This document shows, in pieces, positions 54,666 to 63,540 of a stretch of 64,000 nucleotides of DNA. The position numbers and the translations under genes are program-made. The notes beneath the pieces are model-generated. The model searched no databases and had not been told where the DNA came from. It was given only the letters and a program-made list of their open reading frames with translations. The first letter of the stretch is position 1, and every line of letters starts with the position of its first letter. Origin of the DNA: Acutalibacteraceae bacterium (GTDB lineage Bacteria > Bacillota > Clostridia > Oscillospirales > Acutalibacteraceae); contig JAZRBF010000013.1 in the NCBI GenBank assembly GCA_045634985.1, forward strand, positions 23,450 to 87,449, read 5' to 3'.

Positions 54666-56096
54666 ATGAATTATGATGTTGCCGTTATAGGTGCAGGCGT
54701 AATCGGCTCTCTCATCGCCCGTGAGCTCAGCCGTTACGATGTAAGCGTTGCACTTGTTGAAAAATGCAACGATATGGCTATGGCTACTTCTAAAGCCAAC
54801 AGCGCAATTGTTCATGCCGGTTTCGATGCAAAGCCCGGTTCAATGAAAGCAAAAATGAATGTCGAAGGTACAGCACTTATGCCTGCATTATGCAAGGAAT
54901 TAAGCGTACCCTTCAAGCCTGTAGGCTCACTCGTTGTCGCTTTCTCTGACGAGGAAATGGTTACCCTCAACGAACTTCTCGAAAGAGGTAAGGGAAACGG
55001 CGTACCCGGTCTTGAAATTTATGATGTTACAAAACTTCGCGAGGAAGAACCTTTTATCAGCGAAGAAGCCAAAGGCGCTCTTTGGGCACCTTCAGCAGGT
55101 ATTGTCTGCCCCTACGAGCTTACAATCGCCGCAGTTGAAAACGCGGTAGTCAACGGCACCGAATTCATCCGTAATTTTGAAGTTAAAAAGATTGATTTTG
55201 CTGACGGTATCTTCACTCTTTCAAACGGTGAATCTGAAATCAGCGCAAAATATGTTGTCAACGCCGCAGGCGTTTTCTGCGATGAAATCGCCGCTCTTAT
55301 CGGTGACAATTCAATCTGCACAATGCCCAGAAAGGGCGAATATATGCTCTGTGACAAATCAATCGGTCACCTTGCAAATCACACAATTTTCCAGTGCCCC
55401 TCAAAGATGGGTAAAGGTATTCTTGTCACTCCCACAGTTGACGGCAACCTTCTTATCGGTCCGAGCGCACTTGACATTGAAGATAAAACTGATGTAACAA
55501 CAACCGCCGGTACTCTTGCAGATGTCCTCACAGCCGCAAAGAGATCTGTTCCCTGCCTTACAACAAGAGAAGTTATCACTTCATTTGCAGGTCTGAGAGC
55601 TCATTGCACAAGAGATGATTTCATTATCGAACCCAGCGAAAAGAACGCACAGTTCATCAACGTTGCAGGCATCGAATCACCCGGTCTTTCATCCGCTCCT
55701 GCAATCGGTCTTTATGTCAAAGATATGCTCATCAAGGAACTCGGCGCAAGCGAAAAGGCAGACTTCAAAGCCGAAAGAGAAGAGCCTGTCCGCTTCAGAC
55801 ATATGAGCAACGAAGAACGCAAAGCAATCATTGCAAAGAATCCTGCTTACGGCAGAATCATCTGTCGCTGCGAAACAATCACAGAGGGTGAAATCCTCGA
55901 CGCAATCCACGCTCCTGCAGGTGCAAGAGATGTTGACGGCGTAAAACGCAGAACAAGAGCTGGTATGGGTCGTTGTCAGGGTGGCTTCTGCGGCTCAAAA
56001 GTTGTTGAGCTTCTTGCGAGAGAATTTGGCGTTGAAATCAACGAAATCACCAAATGCGGCGGAAATTCAAAAATTCTTTATGACAGAACAAAGTGA
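54666..56096 (+). CDS. FAD-dependent oxidoreductase, GlpA/LhgO-like (putative glycerol-3-phosphate dehydrogenase) with a BFD-like [2Fe-2S] domain
   Basis: 'VIGAGVIG', 'TSKANSAIVHAG', 'GIESPGL', 'ICRCE...RAGMGRCQGGFC'. Confidence 0.85.
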   Translation: MNYDVAVIGAGVIGSLIARELSRYDVSVALVEKCNDMAMATSKANSAIVHAGFDAKPGSMKAKMNVEGTALMPALCKELSVPFKPVGSLVVAFSDEEMVTLNELLERGKGNGVPGLEIYDVTKLREEEPFISEEAKGALWAPSAGIVCPYELTIAAVENAVVNGTEFIRNFEVKKIDFADGIFTLSNGESEISAKYVVNAAGVFCDEIAALIGDNSICTMPRKGEYMLCDKSIGHLANHTIFQCPSKMGKGILVTPTVDGNLLIGPSALDIEDKTDVTTTAGTLADVLTAAKRSVPCLTTREVITSFAGLRAHCTRDDFIIEPSEKNAQFINVAGIESPGLSSAPAIGLYVKDMLIKELGASEKADFKAEREEPVRFRHMSNEERKAIIAKNPAYGRIICRCETITEGEILDAIHAPAGARDVDGVKRRTRAGMGRCQGGFCGSKVVELLAREFGVEINEITKCGGNSKILYDRTK

Positions 56097-56106
56097 GGCG
56101 GAGATT

Positions 56107-57360
56107 ATGCTTAATTATGATATAGTTGTTATCGGCGGCGGTCCCGCAGGTATGGCGGCTGCGCTCAAAGCAAAGGAATGCGGCGTTGACAGCATCCTTA
56201 TTCTCGAAAGAGCCGAAACCCTCGGCGGTATTCTTGAGCAGTGCATACATACAGGCTTCGGTCTCCACTACTTTGGCGAAGAGCTTTCGGGTCCCGAATA
56301 TGCCGACAGATTCATTTCTCTCGTTGACGAGCAGAAAATCGAATATAAAACAGATACAATGGCTCTTGAAATCACAGAAAACAATGTGGTTTATGCCGTA
56401 AACAAAACTGACGGTCTGCTTGAGATTCAGGCAAAGGCTGTTATCCTCGCAATGGGTTGCCGTGAAAGACCCAGAGGCGCACTCAACATCGCAGGCTCAA
56501 GAGCATCAGGTGTTATGAGCGCAGGTACTGCACAGAAGTATGTCAACATTGACGGCTATATGCCCGGCAAAAAGGTTGTTATTCTCGGCTCGGGTGATAT
56601 CGGTCTTATTATGGCACGCCGTATGACTCTTGAAGGCGCAGAAGTCAAGGTTGTATGCGAACTTATGCCCTATTCAAGCGGTCTTACAAGAAACATCGTT
56701 CAGTGCCTTGATGACTTCAACATCCCCCTTCGTCTGAGCTGCACCGTTATCGGTATCCACGGCAAGGACAGAGTTGAAGGCGTTACAATCGCAAACGTTG
56801 ACGAAAATCGCAGACCTATCCCCGGCACAGAAGAATATATCGAATGCGATACTCTTCTTCTTTCCGTTGGTCTTATCCCCGAAAATGAGCTGACACGAGC
56901 AGTCGGAATTGAGCTTGACCCCGTTACAAGCGGTGCTGTTGTTGATGAAAACAGAGAAACATCACACAAGGGTGTTTTCGCTTGCGGCAATGTTCTTCAT
57001 GTTCACGATCTTGTTGACTATGTTACTCTTGAAAGCCAGACCGCAGGCGAAGGCGCAGCAAAATTCGTTCTCGGCGGCGACAATAAGCCTGAATATATCA
57101 CAACAAAGGGCGTCAGCGGTGTGCGTTACATCGTGCCCCAGAAGGTAAACATCAAAAATGAAGGCGATGTAAAACTCTATTTCAGAGTCGGTCAGGTTTA
57201 TAAAAACGCAAAAACCGTTGTTAAATATAACGGCGAAGAAATCATCACCAAAAAGAGACCCCGTCTTGCACCCGGCGAAATGGAAAGCGTTATCATCAAG
57301 AATGAAATGCTTAAAGGCTTTGCCGAGGGCGGCGTAATTGAAATTTCGGTAGAGGAGTGA
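56107..57360 (+). CDS. NAD(P)/FAD-dependent pyridine nucleotide-disulfide oxidoreductase (partner subunit)
   Basis: 'IGGGPAG', 'GGILEQCIH', 'AMGCRER', 'ILGSGDIGLIMARR', 'CGNVLHVHDLVD'. Confidence 0.88.
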   Translation: MLNYDIVVIGGGPAGMAAALKAKECGVDSILILERAETLGGILEQCIHTGFGLHYFGEELSGPEYADRFISLVDEQKIEYKTDTMALEITENNVVYAVNKTDGLLEIQAKAVILAMGCRERPRGALNIAGSRASGVMSAGTAQKYVNIDGYMPGKKVVILGSGDIGLIMARRMTLEGAEVKVVCELMPYSSGLTRNIVQCLDDFNIPLRLSCTVIGIHGKDRVEGVTIANVDENRRPIPGTEEYIECDTLLLSVGLIPENELTRAVGIELDPVTSGAVVDENRETSHKGVFACGNVLHVHDLVDYVTLESQTAGEGAAKFVLGGDNKPEYITTKGVSGVRYIVPQKVNIKNEGDVKLYFRVGQVYKNAKTVVKYNGEEIITKKRPRLAPGEMESVIIKNEMLKGFAEGGVIEISVEE

Positions 57361-57365
57361 TTGAA

Positions 57366-57731
57366 ATGCAGAAAAACATTATTTGCGTAGCTTGTCCTAT
57401 GGGTTGCGGCGTTACTGTTGAACTCGATGACAACGGCACAATTGTTTCCGTTACAGGCAACACTTGCAAAAGAGGCGATGCATACGCCAGAACAGAAATC
57501 ACAAATCCCGTAAGAAGTCTCGCTACAACCGTTAAGGTTGATGGCGGTGTTTTCAATGTTGTTCCCTGCAAATCATCATCAGCTCTTCCCAAAGATAAGA
57601 TTTTTGATTGCATGGAAGTAATCAACAATGTTTCTGCCAAAGCTCCCGTTAAGCTTGGCGATGTTCTTGTTTCCGACATTCTCGGTACAGGTGTTGACAT
57701 TGTTGCTACAAATCATTGCCCCATTAAATAA
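57366..57731 (+). CDS. DUF1667-family CxxC metal-binding protein
   Basis: 'CVACPMGC...GNTCKRG...NPVR'; third gene of the conserved trio. Confidence 0.85.
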   Translation: MQKNIICVACPMGCGVTVELDDNGTIVSVTGNTCKRGDAYARTEITNPVRSLATTVKVDGGVFNVVPCKSSSALPKDKIFDCMEVINNVSAKAPVKLGDVLVSDILGTGVDIVATNHCPIK

Positions 57732-57905: not shown

Positions 57906-57964
57906 TATGCATATATATGCAACTAAACGTTGACCTTTCCTGTAGTTTTGTTTATAATTATTCA
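57906..57964 (+). promoter_or_regulatory. argF-carB sigmaA promoter with ARG-box-like (ArgR/AhrC) operators
   Basis: Perfect palindrome TGCATATATATGCA (57908-57921); TTGACC (57930), 17 nt, TATAAT (57953); second box-like TTTATAATTATTCA (57951-57964) over the -10. Confidence 0.7.
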
Positions 57965-57990: not shown

Positions 57991-58902
57991 ATGGAAAACA
58001 AGCATTTACTTAAGCTCATGGACCTGAGCACCGAAGAAATCAATGAGATTCTCAATCTCGCAGACCAGCTCAAGTACGAAAAGAAAAACGGCATTGAGCA
58101 TCACCTTCTCAAAGGCAAGACTCTCGGTATGATTTTTGCAAAATCATCAACAAGAACAAGAGTTTCCTTTGAAGTCGGTATGTATGACCTCGGCGGTCAG
58201 GCTCTTTTCCTCAGCTCACACGACATTCAGCTCGGCAGAGGCGAACCTGTTAATGACACAGCAAGAGTTCTTTCGGGTTATCTTGACGGCATTATGATCA
58301 GAACCTTTGATCAGAGCGATGTTGAAACTCTCGCAGAATTCGGCTCAATTCCGATCATCAACGGTCTTACAGACTATTGCCACCCCTGCCAGGTACTCGC
58401 AGACCTTATGACAATCCGCGAATTCAGAGGCGCCATCAAAGGCAACAAGCTCTGCTACATCGGTGATGGTAACAATATGGCAAATTCACTCATCGTTGGC
58501 GGTATTAAGATGGGTATGAGCGTAAGCATCGGTTGCCCCGACGGCTACAAACCCGATGCCGAAATTATGAAGTGGGCTTCAGAAAACGGTGATTTCACCT
58601 GCACAAGCGATATTTTCGAAGCTGCAAAGGATGCCGATGTTCTTTACACAGACGTATGGGCATCAATGGGTCAGGAAGCTGAAGCTGAAGAACGCAAAAA
58701 GATTTTTGCCGGCTATCAGATTAATGACAGCGTTATGGCTGTTGCAAAGTCTGACGCAATGGTTCTTCACTGTCTTCCTGCACATCGCGAAGAAGAAATC
58801 ACAGCAAAGGTATTTGAAGAACACGCAAGAGAAATTTTTGAAGAAGCTGAAAACAGACTCCACGCACAGAAGGCTGTTCTCGTAAAGCTTCTTAAAGACT
58901 GA
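57991..58902 (+). CDS. argF: Ornithine carbamoyltransferase
   Basis: 'STRTR', 'HPCQ', 'DVWASMG', 'HCLP', 'AENRLH'. Confidence 0.96.
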   Translation: MENKHLLKLMDLSTEEINEILNLADQLKYEKKNGIEHHLLKGKTLGMIFAKSSTRTRVSFEVGMYDLGGQALFLSSHDIQLGRGEPVNDTARVLSGYLDGIMIRTFDQSDVETLAEFGSIPIINGLTDYCHPCQVLADLMTIREFRGAIKGNKLCYIGDGNNMANSLIVGGIKMGMSVSIGCPDGYKPDAEIMKWASENGDFTCTSDIFEAAKDADVLYTDVWASMGQEAEAEERKKIFAGYQINDSVMAVAKSDAMVLHCLPAHREEEITAKVFEEHAREIFEEAENRLHAQKAVLVKLLKD

Positions 58903-58923: not shown

Positions 58924-61900
58924 ATGCCAATCAGCAAAGATATCAAAAAAGTAATGGTTATCGGCTCCGGCCCCATTGTTATCGGTCAGGCTGCCGAATT
59001 TGACTATGCAGGCACTCAGGCTTGCCGCGTACTTAAAGAAGCCGGTCTTGATGTTGTCCTTGTTAACTCAAACCCTGCAACAATTATGACCGATAAGGCT
59101 CTTGCAGATGAAATTTATCTTGAGCCTCTCACCGCTGAAACCGTTAAAAGAATTATTGAAAAAGAGCGTCCTGACAGCCTGCTCGCAGGTCTTGGCGGCC
59201 AGACAGGTCTGACCATCGCAATGCAGCTGAGCAAAGACGGTTATCTTGACAGAATGGGTGTTAAGCTCCTCGGCACAAATGCCGAAGCTATTGACAAGGC
59301 TGAAGACAGAAAAATGTTCCGCGACACAATGACATCCATCAATCAGCCTGTTATCCCCTCCGAAATTGCAAACGATGTTGAAACAGCAGTTGAAATTGCT
59401 GCTAAAATCGGCTACCCCATCATCATCCGTCCTGCATTCACACTCGGCGGTGGCGGCGGCGGTGTTGCCGAAAACGAAGAAGAACTCCGCGTTATCGCAA
59501 AAACAGGTCTTGACCTCTCTCCCATCACTCAGGTTCTTGTTGAAAAATACATCTTCGGCTGGAAAGAAATCGAGTTTGAAACAATGCGCGACTCCGCAGG
59601 TAACTGCATTGCAGTCTGCAGCATGGAAAACTTCGACCCCGTAGGTATTCATACAGGCGACAGTATCGTTGCCGCACCTGCACTCAGCCTTACAACAGAG
59701 GAATTCGAGATGCTCCGCAAGGCATCACTCGATATCGTTGATGCACTCGGAATCATCGGCGGTTGTAACTGCCAGTTTGCTCTTGACCCCAACAGCATGG
59801 ATTATGCTGTTATTGAGGTTAACCCCAGAGTTTCCCGTTCATCCGCACTTGCAAGTAAAGCAACAGGTTACCCCATCGCAAAGGTTACAGCAATGCTTGC
59901 TCTCGGTATGACCCTTGATGAAATCAAGAATGATAAGACCGGTCTTAACTGCGCAAACTTTGAGCCCGATGTAAAATACATCGTTGTAAAGCTTCCCAAA
60001 TGGCCCTTCGATAAATTTGTTAACGCAAGCCGTAAGCTCGGCACTCAGATGAAGGCAACAGGCGAAGTTATGTCCATCGGCCCCACATTCGAGATGGCTA
60101 TTATGAAGGCTGTCAGAGGTGCTGAAATTTCGCTTGATACACTCAATGCAGAGCCCAAGACAGACGCTCCTCTTGAAGAACGAATGAGAGAAACCGACGA
60201 TATGCGTCTTTTCTCCGTATTCGAAGCTATCAAAGGCGGCATGTCACTCGATAAGGTTCACGAAATCACAAAAATTACAAAGTGGTTCCTTGAAAAGCTC
60301 AAGAATCTCGCTGACTTCGAAAAATCAATCGAAGGCGGCAACCTTACAGAAGAAAAGTATTATCAGGGTAAGGATTACGGCTATACAGATGCTGCTCTCA
60401 AACGTCTTTCAGGTGTTAAGGAGCTTCCTGCTCATAAAGATGCTGTTTACAGAATCGTTGACACCTGCACAAAGAACTTCAACACAGCTGCACCCTATTT
60501 CTACTCAACATACGGCGATGAATGCGAGGCAAGACCTCTCATCGACGATAAGAAAGAAAAGATTATCGTTCTCGGTTCAGGCCCCATCAGAATCGGTCAG
60601 GGTATCGAATTCGACTATTCATCAGTTCATTGCGTATGGACTCTTAAAGAACTTGGTTATGAGGTTGCAATCATCAACAACAACCCCGAAACCGTTTCAA
60701 CTGACTACGACACATCTGACAGACTCTACTTTGAACCCCTCACTCCCGAAGATGTTATGAACATCATCAAGGTTGAGAAGCCCATCGGCGTTGTTGTTGC
60801 ATTCGGCGGTCAGACAGCAATCAAGCTTACAAAGTTCCTTGACGAAAACGGAATCCGTATTCTCGGCACATCTGCTGACGGTATTGACACCGCTGAAGAC
60901 AGAGAAAGATTCGATGCACTTCTTGAGCAGTTTGGCATTCTTCGTCCCAAGGGAATGGGCGTTATGACAAAGCAGGAAGCTCTTAATGCTGCTGCTGAAC
61001 TCGGTTATCCCGTTCTTCTCCGTCCTTCATATGTTATCGGCGGTCAGAATATGACCATCGCATACAGCGATGCTGATGTTAACCGCTATATGGATATTAT
61101 TCTCTCAGGCGAAATTGAGAATCCCGTTCTTGTTGACAAATATATGATGGGTACAGAGCTTGAGGTTGACGTTATTTCCGACGGCACAGATGTTCTTATT
61201 CCCGGTATTATGGAACACGTTGAAAGAGCAGGCGTTCACAGCGGTGACTCCATCGCAGTTTACCCGCCCTACAATCTCAACGACAAGATGAGAAAGAACA
61301 TTATCGAATGCTCCGAAAAACTTGCTCTTTCTCTCGGCACAAAGGGTCTTGTCAACATTCAGTATCTTATCTATCAGAATAAACTCTATGTTATCGAAGT
61401 TAACCCCAGAGCATCAAGAACAATTCCTTATATCAGCAAGGTTACAGGCGTTCCTATGGTTGACATTGCCGCAAAGGTAATGATCGGTATGCCCCTCAAA
61501 GACCTCGGCTACGGAACAGGTCTTTATAAGACTCCCCCCTACTTTACCGTTAAAGTTCCTGTATTCTCATTTGAAAAGCTCAGCGATGTTAACTCCATCC
61601 TCGGCCCTGAAATGAAATCAACAGGTGAAGTTCTCGGTATCGGTAAGACAACTGCTGAAGCTCTCTTCAAGGGTCTTACCTCTGCAGGCTTCAAGATTCA
61701 GCTTCCCACCGCTGAAAATGAAATCGGTCTTCTTCTCAGCGTTGATACACACGATATTCTTGATGCAGTTTCACTTGCAAAGAAACTTGATGACCTCAAA
61801 ATCAAGATTTATGCAACTCCCGAAACCGCAGAAGCTATCTCACATCTCGGTATTGATGTTAATGTTGTCAAGGGCTTCAGCGAAGGCAACGATATGTTTG

Positions 61901-62958
61901 AACTCCTTGAAACAGGTAAAATCAATTATATTGTTTACACCGGCGCTAACTACGGCTCGGCAATGAACGATTATATCGCTCTCCACAGAAGAGCAATCCA
62001 GCTTTCAATTGCTTGCATCACTTCTCTTGATACAGCAAATGCACTTGCAGACATCATCGCTAGCCATTTCAATCAGCAGAATACAGAGCTTGTTGACATC
62101 AACAATATGCGTTCAGAAAGACGCACTCTTAAATTCTTCAAGATGGATGCATCAGGCAATGACCACATCCTTATCGAAAACTTTGATAACTCCATCACCT
62201 GCCCCGAAAGCCTCTGCGTAAGCCTTTGCGACCGCAACCACGGTATCGGCAGCGACGGTATTGTCCTTGTTGAAAAATCAGATGTGGCTCAGGTCAAGAT
62301 GAGAGTATTTAACCTTGACGGTAGCGAAGGAAGAATGGGCGGTAACGCAATGCGCTCCGTTGCAAAGTATGTCTTTGACAAGGGTTATGTTGACACCGAA
62401 ACAGTTACAATTGAAACTGCAAGCGGCGTCAAGAGCGTTGACCTGTACCTTATGAATGGCAAGGTAAGCTCTGTTTGCGCTAATATGGGCAAGGCAGAGC
62501 TTGACGGTGCTGTTACAAGCACAAACGGCATCGAAAGATTCGTTGATTATCCTGTTATCCTCGGCGGTGAGGATTACAGAATCACCTGCGTATCAATGGG
62601 TAACCCCCACTGCGTAGTATTCTGCCCCAGAGTTGACAATATCGAAATCGAAAAGATCGGCCCCAGATTTGAGAAGGCTTCAATCTTCGCTCACAGAGTC
62701 AACACAGAATTCGTAAGAGTTGTTAACGAAACAACACTTAAGATGAGAGTCTGGGAAAGAGGTAACGGCGAAACTCTTGCTTGCGGCACAGGCGCCTGCG
62801 CAGCTGTTGTTGCTGCTGTAGAAAACGGTTACTGCAAGAAGAATACAGACATCATTGTTAAAGTTAAGGGCGGCGACCTCATCGTTAACTATACTGATGA
62901 CGGCGTTTACCTTACAGGTACAACCAAGCTTGTATTCGAAGGCACTGTAGAATATTAA
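58924..62958 (+). CDS. carB: Carbamoyl-phosphate synthase large subunit fused to a C-terminal DapF-fold domain
   Basis: aa 1-~1065: 'IGSGPIVIGQAAEFDY', two ATP-grasp halves, MGS domain. aa ~1068-1344: 'KM..SGND', 'GIGSDG', 'NPHCV', 'RVWERG.GETLACGTGA'. Confidence 0.93.
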   Translation: MPISKDIKKVMVIGSGPIVIGQAAEFDYAGTQACRVLKEAGLDVVLVNSNPATIMTDKALADEIYLEPLTAETVKRIIEKERPDSLLAGLGGQTGLTIAMQLSKDGYLDRMGVKLLGTNAEAIDKAEDRKMFRDTMTSINQPVIPSEIANDVETAVEIAAKIGYPIIIRPAFTLGGGGGGVAENEEELRVIAKTGLDLSPITQVLVEKYIFGWKEIEFETMRDSAGNCIAVCSMENFDPVGIHTGDSIVAAPALSLTTEEFEMLRKASLDIVDALGIIGGCNCQFALDPNSMDYAVIEVNPRVSRSSALASKATGYPIAKVTAMLALGMTLDEIKNDKTGLNCANFEPDVKYIVVKLPKWPFDKFVNASRKLGTQMKATGEVMSIGPTFEMAIMKAVRGAEISLDTLNAEPKTDAPLEERMRETDDMRLFSVFEAIKGGMSLDKVHEITKITKWFLEKLKNLADFEKSIEGGNLTEEKYYQGKDYGYTDAALKRLSGVKELPAHKDAVYRIVDTCTKNFNTAAPYFYSTYGDECEARPLIDDKKEKIIVLGSGPIRIGQGIEFDYSSVHCVWTLKELGYEVAIINNNPETVSTDYDTSDRLYFEPLTPEDVMNIIKVEKPIGVVVAFGGQTAIKLTKFLDENGIRILGTSADGIDTAEDRERFDALLEQFGILRPKGMGVMTKQEALNAAAELGYPVLLRPSYVIGGQNMTIAYSDADVNRYMDIILSGEIENPVLVDKYMMGTELEVDVISDGTDVLIPGIMEHVERAGVHSGDSIAVYPPYNLNDKMRKNIIECSEKLALSLGTKGLVNIQYLIYQNKLYVIEVNPRASRTIPYISKVTGVPMVDIAAKVMIGMPLKDLGYGTGLYKTPPYFTVKVPVFSFEKLSDVNSILGPEMKSTGEVLGIGKTTAEALFKGLTSAGFKIQLPTAENEIGLLLSVDTHDILDAVSLAKKLDDLKIKIYATPETAEAISHLGIDVNVVKGFSEGNDMFELLETGKINYIVYTGANYGSAMNDYIALHRRAIQLSIACITSLDTANALADIIASHFNQQNTELVDINNMRSERRTLKFFKMDASGNDHILIENFDNSITCPESLCVSLCDRNHGIGSDGIVLVEKSDVAQVKMRVFNLDGSEGRMGGNAMRSVAKYVFDKGYVDTETVTIETASGVKSVDLYLMNGKVSSVCANMGKAELDGAVTSTNGIERFVDYPVILGGEDYRITCVSMGNPHCVVFCPRVDNIEIEKIGPRFEKASIFAHRVNTEFVRVVNETTLKMRVWERGNGETLACGTGACAAVVAAVENGYCKKNTDIIVKVKGGDLIVNYTDDGVYLTGTTKLVFEGTVEY

Positions 62959-62968
62959 TATAACCAAT

Positions 62969-63016
62969 AAAAAGCCCCTGACGGAATCGGAAGAAACCGT
63001 CAGGGGTTTATGTTTT
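62969..63016. terminator. Bidirectional terminator
   Basis: GCCCCTGACGG...CCGTCAGGGGT with A and T flanks. Confidence 0.8.
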
Positions 63017-63540
63017 TATTTGGTAAGACCTGATTTTTTAAGCGCCATAACGATTGGCGGAATAACAAGAATATGAATTATGATAGCCGGTATTGCATTT
63101 GTAAATGCGCCTGCAATAAACATTGCAAAGGTGAATTCGCTACCCGAAACACCCGACATAATGAGCCTTGCAACACCCCAGATAACTCTGCCTGCAATCA
63201 TCGAGATTATAAGCGCAGGATAGATATACACATTCTTTTTGGGAAAGAGTTTATAAAGCAAACCTGCAAACAATCCGTATGCGGCAAGCTCAAACATCAT
63301 TCCGAGAGCAACGGGATACATCGGAGGCATTCCGACAATCACGCTTCGGAGAATCGGCGCAACTGCGCCAACAATCACCGCATATTCCCAGCCGCATATA
63401 AAACCGCATACCAAAACGGGTATATGCATCGGTGAAATCATATTCCCGATTTGAGTGTTTCCTCCCGTTATTGTGGGAAGGACAAAACACAGGGCAAGAC
63501 ACATTGCTGAAAACGCTACATTTTTCACTATCTTGTTCAT
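63016..63540 (-). CDS. ECF transporter S component (substrate unknown)
   Basis: About 6 TM helices; 'SAMCLAL', 'PMHIPVLVCGFICG', 'MMFELAAYG'. Confidence 0.85.
   Translation of the reverse strand: MNKIVKNVAFSAMCLALCFVLPTITGGNTQIGNMISPMHIPVLVCGFICGWEYAVIVGAVAPILRSVIVGMPPMYPVALGMMFELAAYGLFAGLLYKLFPKKNVYIYPALIISMIAGRVIWGVARLIMSGVSGSEFTFAMFIAGAFTNAIPAIIIHILVIPPIVMALKKSGLTK

Follow-up and report, generated by a model that had tools for sequence, protein, structure and literature searches.

The window analysed here, a stretch of 64,000 nucleotides from a gut bacterium of the Acutalibacteraceae, carries at 58924..62958 (+) a carB::dapF* fusion gene, in which the large subunit of carbamoyl phosphate synthetase (CPS) is continued by a domain resembling diaminopimelate (DAP) epimerase. 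The open reading frame is single and uninterrupted and encodes a protein of 1344 amino acids, to which all residue numbers refer unless E. coli is named. It follows argF, the gene for ornithine carbamoyltransferase (57991..58902, +; TIGR00658 424.8 bits against a cut-off of 280.85), after a gap of 21 nucleotides with no carA between them. The CarB part, residues 1-1048 (58924..62067, +), comprises the two ATP-grasp halves, the oligomerisation domain and the MGS domain; over these residues it scores 1400.6 bits with the NF003671 profile (cut-off 599). The MGS allosteric domain lies at 61720..62067 (+), with residues 948-1033 as the Pfam match. A conserved linker without a stop, residues 1049-1069 (62068..62130, +), leads to the DapF-like domain, residues 1070-1344 (62131..62955, +). 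This was recognised by profile (TIGR00652 249.8 bits over residues 1070-1342, cut-off 114.65), by alignment and by its AlphaFold2 model (predicted template modelling score, pTM, 0.91), for which the best fold match is a DapF (TM score 0.89 to 9mro_A). The GC content at third codon positions is alike in the CarB and DapF parts, at 0.44 and 0.50. PDB searches made with the protein returned no solved chain combining CarB and DapF. From its motifs and its argF neighbour the protein would be expected to make carbamoyl phosphate.

The DapF-like domain lacks the first of the two catalytic cysteines. Alignment to solved DapFs places Gly1139 (GGC, 62338..62340, +), within SEGRMGGNAM (residues 1134-1143), on that position, and the second, Cys1287 (TGC, 62782..62784, +, within ETLACGTG, residues 1283-1290), is intact. 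The PROSITE signature of DapF, which includes the first catalytic cysteine (PMC8225329), is matched by the protein at all but this residue. A reading made earlier from the letters alone (the sequence-only reading) had described the 1344-codon CarB-DapF frame, the glycine and the intact second cysteine, and all three are borne out by the profile scores, the motif positions, the alignment and contigs from other sequencing runs. In these contigs neither a stop or frameshift at the junction nor TGC at 62338 is seen: the codon at 62338-62340 is identical in those of runs X1 and X2, which belong to one study and may stem from the source sample, and in those of X3, from a second study; the junction is crossed gap-free in those of X1, X2 and X4 (a third study). 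Together with the homologues described below, they rule out an assembly error as the origin of the glycine codon or of the junction. The drift of KMHGLGND to KMDASGND (residues 1073-1080), which had also been thought noteworthy, is not special, the histidine often being replaced in cysteine-retaining and standalone forms (by Gln in 17/21 cysteine-retaining fusions and 34/110 standalone DapFs); the aspartate is confined to Cys-less fusions among the aligned sets.

Homologues were sought with residues 1040-1344 among proteins of 739-2352 amino acids, of which 7992 candidates were scored and 6838 matched at E ≤ 1e-20. The best 120 of these 6838 all have CPS and DapF Pfam domains, and the few named ones are mostly labelled CarB alone. 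With the query included, residue 1139 is Gly in 65 and Ala in 56 of these 121 aligned proteins and Cys1287 is kept in every one. From the species collection the 80 best-matching loci (the best-80 set, 77 parsed) were taken; their records are titled Acutalibacteraceae, Oscillospiraceae, Ruminococcus, Lachnospiraceae, Peptococcaceae and Syntrophomonadaceae. Because this set is biased towards the window's protein, 200 other genomes were sampled evenly from the order (the even sample). At least 83 of them carry the fused frame among the matches listed, with 56 weaker matches outside these; 80 of the 83 fusions were fetched and 77 parsed. Around 40% of the sampled genomes of this dominant gut order would then carry a CPS design that databases label as CarB. 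Cultured carriers of the fusion family include Oscillibacter ruminantium GH1 and O. valericigenes. Related genomes are not independent samples, and for the routes to meso-DAP counts alone are given.

Tabulated across homologues, the position of the first cysteine is Cys in none of the 121 nearest proteins and in 17 of the 77 from the even sample, the others being 38 Ala, 12 Gly, 4 Ser, 4 Phe, 1 Tyr and 1 Thr. The best-80 set has 34 Ala, 24 Cys and 19 Gly among the 77 parsed, with Ala, Ala and Ser in the other three, and here the surroundings of the gene differ with the residue: arg genes flank 33/53 Cys-less against 0/24 cysteine-retaining loci, and dapL flanks 0/53 against 16/24. A tree of the CarB part (residues 1-925, trait columns excluded, FastTree) splits the fusions into two clades, the window's being one branch (49 rows, support 98); "the clade" below means this one. 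In the clade the first cysteine is gone in 41/41 proteins (36 Ala, 4 Gly, 1 Ser) and arg genes are adjacent in 38/41. In the other it is retained in 17 and has been lost repeatedly, in 19. The state of this residue changes 8 times on the CarB tree, at least 6 of the changes being forced by starred branches. A DapF tree from a quick search (90 rows) puts all fusions on one branch (96) and 49 Ala/Gly rows on one branch inside it (99), in a set that held few of the independent losses. A single loss of the cysteine tied to decay of the MGS domain, as the best-80 set had suggested, was overturned by the even sample and the 8 changes.

The DapF domain of the window's protein is probably no longer an epimerase. 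In the DapF of Corynebacterium glutamicum (CgDapF) the mutation C83A or C221A alone nearly abolishes activity (PMC5296763). The first cysteine is kept in 107/110 standalone DapF representatives. Routes to meso-DAP were searched for in 50 of the best-80 genomes (20 with Cys, 29 Cys-less, 1 with Ser). The fusion is the only DapF in 18/20 Cys genomes; 17 have DapL (two split over contig ends), and 16 of these 17 have no DapF besides the fusion. A separate DapF is present in 19 of the 29 Cys-less genomes and Ddh in 16, with at least one of the two in 27, and all eight with DapL carry a separate DapF too. Both cysteines are seen in 17/19 of these separate DapFs, 5 of which are of a divergent type (28-31% identity). 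In the even sample Ddh or a second DapF-like match is present in 59/60 Cys-less genomes: the second match (not read individually) in 43, and Ddh or a separate DapF in 16 of the remaining 17; one Ddh in these genomes has an internal stop. Of the 17 cysteine-retaining genomes, 6 have neither Ddh nor a second DapF. A DapF profile match in these genomes does not prove a working LL-DAP route.

The divergent two-cysteine DapF-like gene is found in Oscillibacter-type genomes (L129-L132, L135); in L130 it precedes a dicarboxylate/amino-acid symporter, and its substrate may not be DAP.

In the window's own genome (G000, an assembly 85% complete) the fusion is the only CarB and the only DapF-like sequence, Ddh and LysA are carried, and DapL has no match in this 85%. 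The Ddh route to meso-DAP bypasses the epimerase, and since Ddh and LysA are present and DapL absent the organism can form meso-DAP without one. A separate dapF, which the sequence-only reading had proposed to look for, is indicated in the 43 of 60 Cys-less genomes with a second DapF-like match but not in the window's own. Of the earlier proposal that the domain is a pseudo-enzyme acting as a sensor, the loss of epimerase activity is well supported, by the absence of the cysteine throughout the clade, by the CgDapF mutants and by the alternative routes, and the sensor role is putative.

The substrate pocket has been kept. All eight CgDapF side chains that matter for DAP binding by mutagenesis (N15, N74, N85, N159, N194, E212, R213 and T223; PMC5296763) are present in the window's protein, as N1079, N1130, N1141, N1227, N1260, E1278, R1279 and T1289. 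Across the clade eleven pocket positions have a conservation of 0.945 against a domain mean of 0.727 (p=0.0001, permutation), and in the same proteins the conservation of five positions of the MGS nucleotide site is down to 0.36. For seven pairs with the window's gene the ratio of non-synonymous to synonymous substitution rates is 0.045-0.172 in the DapF domain, 0.015-0.080 in CarB residues 1-925 and 0.024-0.194 in the MGS domain. Judged from these sequences, the DapF domain is kept for a purpose, and as its first catalytic cysteine is gone but its substrate pocket kept it is likely to be a metabolite sensor. Asn1079 is replaced by Asp in 19/41 proteins of the clade and in 0/36 other fusions, which suggests that an amine still binds at that position. 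DAP is favoured as the ligand because both DapF sub-sites are kept. Lysine, ornithine, arginine and citrulline are of a length that would let them use the L-specific distal site as well, and a change of Asn to Asp would suit a cationic amine more than it would citrulline.

We take Lys954, His995, Asn1015 and Thr1017 (E. coli numbering) of the MGS domain to be residues of the nucleotide site, and Glu783, Asp791 and Glu892 to belong to the ornithine site. In E. coli CarB, Ser948, Thr977 and Lys993 form part of the nucleotide-effector site and Thr1042 of the ornithine site (PMC6245113). The window's protein keeps the equivalents of S948, T977 and T1042, and those of K954, K993, H995, N1015 and T1017 are replaced. 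Throughout the clade the nucleotide site is decayed (K954 in 4/41, K993 in 10/41 and H995 in 0/41), in contrast to the other clade, where it is kept (34/36, 34/36 and 30/36). The Thr1042 equivalent is kept in 77/77 fusions, as are those of E783 and D791; the E892 position is Val or Ala in every group, unfused CarBs included. As a putative sensor the DapF domain probably stands in for the nucleotide-effector site that has decayed in these sequences.

The position of the domain on CarB was modelled with AlphaFold2, taking residues 541-1344 as a single chain and residues 541-1064 and 1067-1344 as two chains. The single-chain model has a pTM of 0.85 and a mean predicted local distance difference test score (pLDDT) of 86. 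The two-chain complex scores 0.64, against 0.00 for the best of three controls; the docking mark is one reached by 116/157 solved complexes and 2/215 mismatched pairs, a calibration that holds only roughly here because the alignments were our own. At least 93% of contacts recur between runs, with a partner pLDDT of at least 87. Contacts are predicted for residues 786-788, 790-791, 818-820, 869-870 and 953 of CarB and 1175-1185, 1238, 1268-1271, 1309-1320 and 1331-1332 of the DapF domain. The main predicted docking surface is residues 786-791 (61279..61296, +), in which Asp787 is found in 41/41 of the clade. With the DapF lobe limits that we assume, the predicted contacts span both lobes and the hinge of the domain, and they lie on the second ATP-grasp. 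The sequence-only reading had looked to an interface with the MGS domain, but docking on the MGS pocket was not what the complex model returned. DapF lobes close upon the ligand (PMC5296763, PMC13728532), and such closure could therefore be felt at the predicted contact.

The second subunit of CPS seems to be missing. CarA has no match in G000, within its 85% completeness, and is absent in 10/14 nearest genomes; of the four nearest that have it, three encode it away from the fusion, in an operon that has an unfused CarB of its own, the fourth being G065. All 29 high-quality genomes of the genus have CarB and 9 of the 29 lack CarA, the fused frame being the only CarB in 7 of these 9. Three segments of CarB are altered in the CarA-less lineages, residues 255-265 (59686..59718, +), 340-352 (59941..59979, +) and, in the oligomerisation domain, 510-524 (60451..60495, +), and from their co-variation with carA loss we presume them to be CarA contacts. 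Twelve positions of CarB were scored, ten chosen from the clade's own changes, and so circular for the clade, and two on general background. They lie in the carboxyphosphate and oligomerisation domains, on which CarA sits (PMC6245113). All 62 rows whose locus includes carA score 7-12, and 26 of the 31 whose locus lacks it score 0-3. Four of the five carA-less rows scoring 9-12 are cut upstream by a contig end or assembly gap, and one has carA elsewhere. The low-scoring rows include lineages outside the picking of positions, namely L161/L162, L171 and unfused pyrimidine-operon CarBs.

Unfused CarBs of the same genus (L154-L160, L172), near pyrB in 7/8, have no adjacent carA and show the same surface decay; as read from these features they are a second CarA-free CPS lineage. 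The proposal that the unfused CarBs of the genus, of ~1057 amino acids, are secondary losses of the DapF domain was rejected, as these are pyrimidine-operon CarBs with 47-48% identity.

Beside 130 fusion loci (a few genomes counted twice) the adjoining CarA has a changed glutaminase triad in 31 and has lost the catalytic cysteine in 26. Such CarAs occur in both fusion clades, examples being L024, L026, L168, L169, L036 and L231, the first four of which are near relatives of the window's locus. This pattern suggests a series from active to dead to lost CarA, followed by use of free ammonia, and the fusion CPS of the window, with its altered contact segments, probably uses free ammonia. CPS is a textbook case of an allosteric enzyme. 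Its bacterial form is described as a glutamine-dependent, two-subunit and MGS-regulated enzyme for which free ammonia is physiologically irrelevant (PMC6245113).

We favour, at about even confidence, the explanation that the fusion is the large subunit of an ArgF-linked CPS, with a non-catalytic, DapF-derived ligand sensor docked on an ammonia-using enzyme. In this scheme carB and dapF were fused, and the two-cysteine relatives, often beside dapL and in genomes with no other DapF, would be bifunctional. In the clade, with Ala, Gly or Ser as residue 1139, the residues that bind DAP have been retained and Ddh or a separate DapF can supply meso-DAP, a pattern from which we infer that epimerase activity was given up and binding in the pocket retained. 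The domain would sit on helix 786-791 and neighbouring loops by strands spanning its two lobes, ~10 residues past the ornithine/HSGDS loop, and ligand-driven closure of the lobes would alter carbamate phosphorylation. The most likely ligand would be DAP, with lysine, arginine, ornithine or citrulline also possible, and the effect could run in either direction. With carA gone and the presumed contact surface decayed, the enzyme would use free ammonia. Both ligand binding by the domain and regulation of CPS are putative. The whole chain taken together, a CarA-free, ammonia-using CPS in which a captured and disarmed DapF has taken over from nucleotide control, reading the pool of a cell-wall/lysine precursor or basic amino acid and signalling through its hinge to the carbamate-phosphorylating domain, we put forward more tentatively, as somewhat short of an even chance. 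The sensor linking arginine and DAP/lysine metabolism that was first proposed from the sequence would agree with conservation of the pocket, decay of the MGS nucleotide site and a docking model that passes the mark, but its predicted contact is on the second ATP-grasp and not on the MGS pocket.

Several observations weigh against the sensor. Conservation at the predicted interface does not exceed that of the domain as a whole (0.67 against 0.73, p=0.85), and both chains of the complex model are parts of a single polypeptide. In the 19 Cys-less fusions outside the clade, among them five with a bulky Phe or Tyr at 1139, the pocket is as well conserved (0.976), so that its conservation may be partly structural. 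As those 19 also keep an intact MGS site, loss of the cysteine does not require decay of the MGS domain. Cys1287 is kept in 40/41 of the clade, which is not demanded of a pure sensor, and loss of the UMP site could reflect use in the arginine pathway or control at PyrB/PyrI, both encoded in G000. On the supporting side, one locus, L173 (G167:C16, 154-3342, -), has a chimeric argF-carB with an N-half of the clade type, an unfused C-half of another CarB type and no DapF. Its C-half has the canonical K954, K993 and N1015 equivalents, which fits the DapF domain and a decayed MGS going together, but no second example is at hand and the genome it comes from is 7% contaminated.

We think it less likely, though still deserving some weight, that the domain is a structural relic, needed for the folding, stability or oligomerisation of CarB and without a relevant ligand. 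Through those 8 changes the first cysteine has been lost repeatedly, and never the domain with it; Phe or Tyr, both bulky, can stand at 1139 beside an unchanged pocket; the linker is conserved and the docking model passes; and DapF is a dimer (PMC13728532), formed via the terminal strands. Against a relic, conservation of the pocket greatly exceeds that of the interface and of the domain overall after long divergence (mean identity 62%), residue 1139 stays small in the clade, and the change of Asn1079 to Asp is specific to it.

That the domain has become a one-cysteine enzyme with a new chemistry, such as elimination, hydrolysis or carbamoyl transfer via Cys1287, His1229 and Glu1278, appears unlikely. 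His1229 and Glu1278 are invariant, and Cys1287 is nearly so (121/121 of the nearest proteins and 40/41 of the clade). Among relatives in the proline-racemase family the Cys-Thr type are dehydratases and there are Ser-Cys members of unknown function (PMC3958920), and a Cys-Thr dehydratase, 6r76, is among the fold matches of the domain. The domain itself falls outside the Cys-Thr type, with its Gly-Cys pair and an identity of 12-13% to such chains against 37% to DapF. Its pocket is as in DapF with no new conserved catalytic group across the clade, Cys1287 is Ser in 1/41 of the clade and 3/19 of the other Cys-less fusions, and there is no recurrent partner gene apart from arg genes and carA.

It is very improbable that the domain still works as a DAP epimerase in which water or some other residue does the task of the first cysteine. 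In favour, the domain exceeds the TIGR00652 cut-off and is the only DapF-like sequence in G000, Ddh and a second DapF are both absent in 1/60 (G205) and 2/29 (G108, G112) Cys-less genomes, and Ser/Ser DapFs exist (PMC13728532). Against it, neither Gly nor Ala offers a side chain for acid-base catalysis, the C83A mutant of CgDapF has almost no activity (PMC5296763), no fusion of the clade depends on DapL alone, and standalone DapFs nearly always keep the cysteine. Nor is it at all probable that the domain, which retains one cysteine in a protein without CarA in G000 and most of its nearest genomes, has replaced CarA as the ammonia source of CarB, because the decay of CarA occurs with and without a DapF domain (the unfused pyrimidine-operon CarBs of the same genus without adjacent carA show the same surface decay), a carA match lies beside 55/60 Cys-less fusions of the even sample, and the model, made of the C-half only, docks the domain on that half, whereas ammonia is delivered to the N-half (PMC6245113).

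The sensor explanation can be set beside several known systems. E. coli CarB (PDB 1a9x/1bxr; TIGR01369, NF003671) has the same domain order, catalytic motifs and Thr1042 equivalent; the window's protein differs from it in the added 275-residue DapF domain, the decayed nucleotide residues, the lack of CarA and the altered contact segments. DapF (EC 5.1.1.7; TIGR00652, PF01678; PDB 2otn, 9mro, 3ejx, 5m47) shares with the domain its fold, the CgDapF substrate residues and the second cysteine, but the domain has Gly at the first and is fused to CarB, and G000 can make meso-DAP via Ddh. The cysteine-retaining CarB-DapF fusions, from Ruminococcus and others, have the same architecture and linker and fall in the sister clade; unlike the window's clade they keep both cysteines and the MGS nucleotide site, and they lie near dapL, pyrG, purF, glnA and an ANTAR regulator and not near arg genes. 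A precedent for a DapF fold acting on a partner is E. coli DapF, which activates RppH without need of epimerase catalysis (PMC13728532, PMC6061791). There, however, DapF is active and separate, and ligand sensing is not claimed, whereas the domain in the window is fused and disarmed. A CPS with a dead domain or one using free ammonia is known from CPS I and from yeast Ura2 with its inactive dihydroorotase-like domain (PMC6022934, PMC6245113). CPS I, in contrast, keeps a fused dead glutaminase and uses N-acetylglutamate; in the window's protein the small subunit is apparently gone and the added domain is a DapF.

No published account of a CarB-DapF fusion, a DapF pseudoenzyme or a CarA-free CPS was found in titles and abstract openings, which covered few subscription journals and no supplements. 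The fusion is apparently undescribed in print, though a table in a genome comparison could list the architecture. If the fuller version, with a CarA-free enzyme under a sensor that has replaced nucleotide control, is true, many of the gut Clostridia of Oscillospiraceae type would regulate CPS in a way that is new, and the stage of the active enzyme would survive in the sister clade. Because the family holds active, disarmed and CarA-free stages, cultured species included, the evolution from enzyme to sensor is directly testable.

As to the origin of the fusion, the cysteine-retaining fusions lie among glnA, an ANTAR regulator, purF, pyrG, carA and dapL, and unfused operons ordered carA-carB-dapF-dapL exist (L126, L128). 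Loss of a stop codon in an operon of this type would be the simplest origin that we can infer from the gene orders. L126 and L128 themselves are not supported as direct ancestors: in the trees their CarB sits apart at the end of a long branch and their DapFs do not group as sister to those of the fusions; they share the gene order only. A nitrogen-assimilation cluster, with varying subsets of glnA, ANTAR response regulator, guaA, pyrG, purF, carA, carB, dapF, dapL, nadE and asnB, seen at L126, L128 and the Ruminococcus-type loci L051-L085, houses both fused and unfused forms.

Some of the fusions have other combinations of residues or neighbours. Phe or Tyr at the position of the first cysteine, with the pocket otherwise intact, is found in L231, L233, L234, L240 and L239. 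Both cysteines are gone in L054, L223, L244, L245 and L213, where the pairs Ser/Ala, Gly/Ser, Thr/Ser and Ala/Ser occur. A cysteine-retaining fusion, L242 (G251:C29), is directly followed by a second, standalone dapF. In two further fusion proteins, P0209 and P0237, the partners of DapF are a Mur ligase and an aminotransferase.

Apart from the fusion, G000 carries argJ, argB, argD, argG, argH, argR and pyrB-pyrI. A strictly arginine-specific enzyme was considered and is not general, the fusion being the only CarB in 15/29 Cys-less genomes and in G000 with its pyrB-pyrI. PyrG and GuaA, like CarA, have no match in G000, and the sole match to PF00117 (class-I glutamine amidotransferase) is in the histidine operon; these gaps may come from the 85% completeness or from a wider loss of these enzymes.

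Upstream of argF lies a sigma-70-type promoter candidate for argF-carB::dapF* (57930..57958, +), with an 11/12 match to the consensus. It is the best of 6 sites where shuffles expect 8.0, and stands as a consensus match only. Just upstream of its -35 element is a perfect palindrome resembling an ArgR (ARG) box (57908..57921, +), by a consensus that we assume. The ARG-box pattern has 11 matches in the genome against 4.7 expected, of which this one and one upstream of argG precede arg genes. A looser form of the box is found upstream of 2/41 Cys-less and 0/19 cysteine-retaining loci and is uninformative across homologues. Farther upstream, 54666-57731 (+) encodes an FAD oxidoreductase with a 2Fe-2S domain, a pyridine-nucleotide oxidoreductase and a DUF1667 protein, a cluster that is probably of the glycerol-3-phosphate dehydrogenase type. 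Downstream of the fusion the convergent neighbour at 63016-63540 (-) encodes the S component of an energy-coupling factor (ECF) transporter, and between the two genes a strand-neutral hairpin of 13 base pairs with A- and T-rich flanks (62972..63009) is likely a two-way terminator for both.

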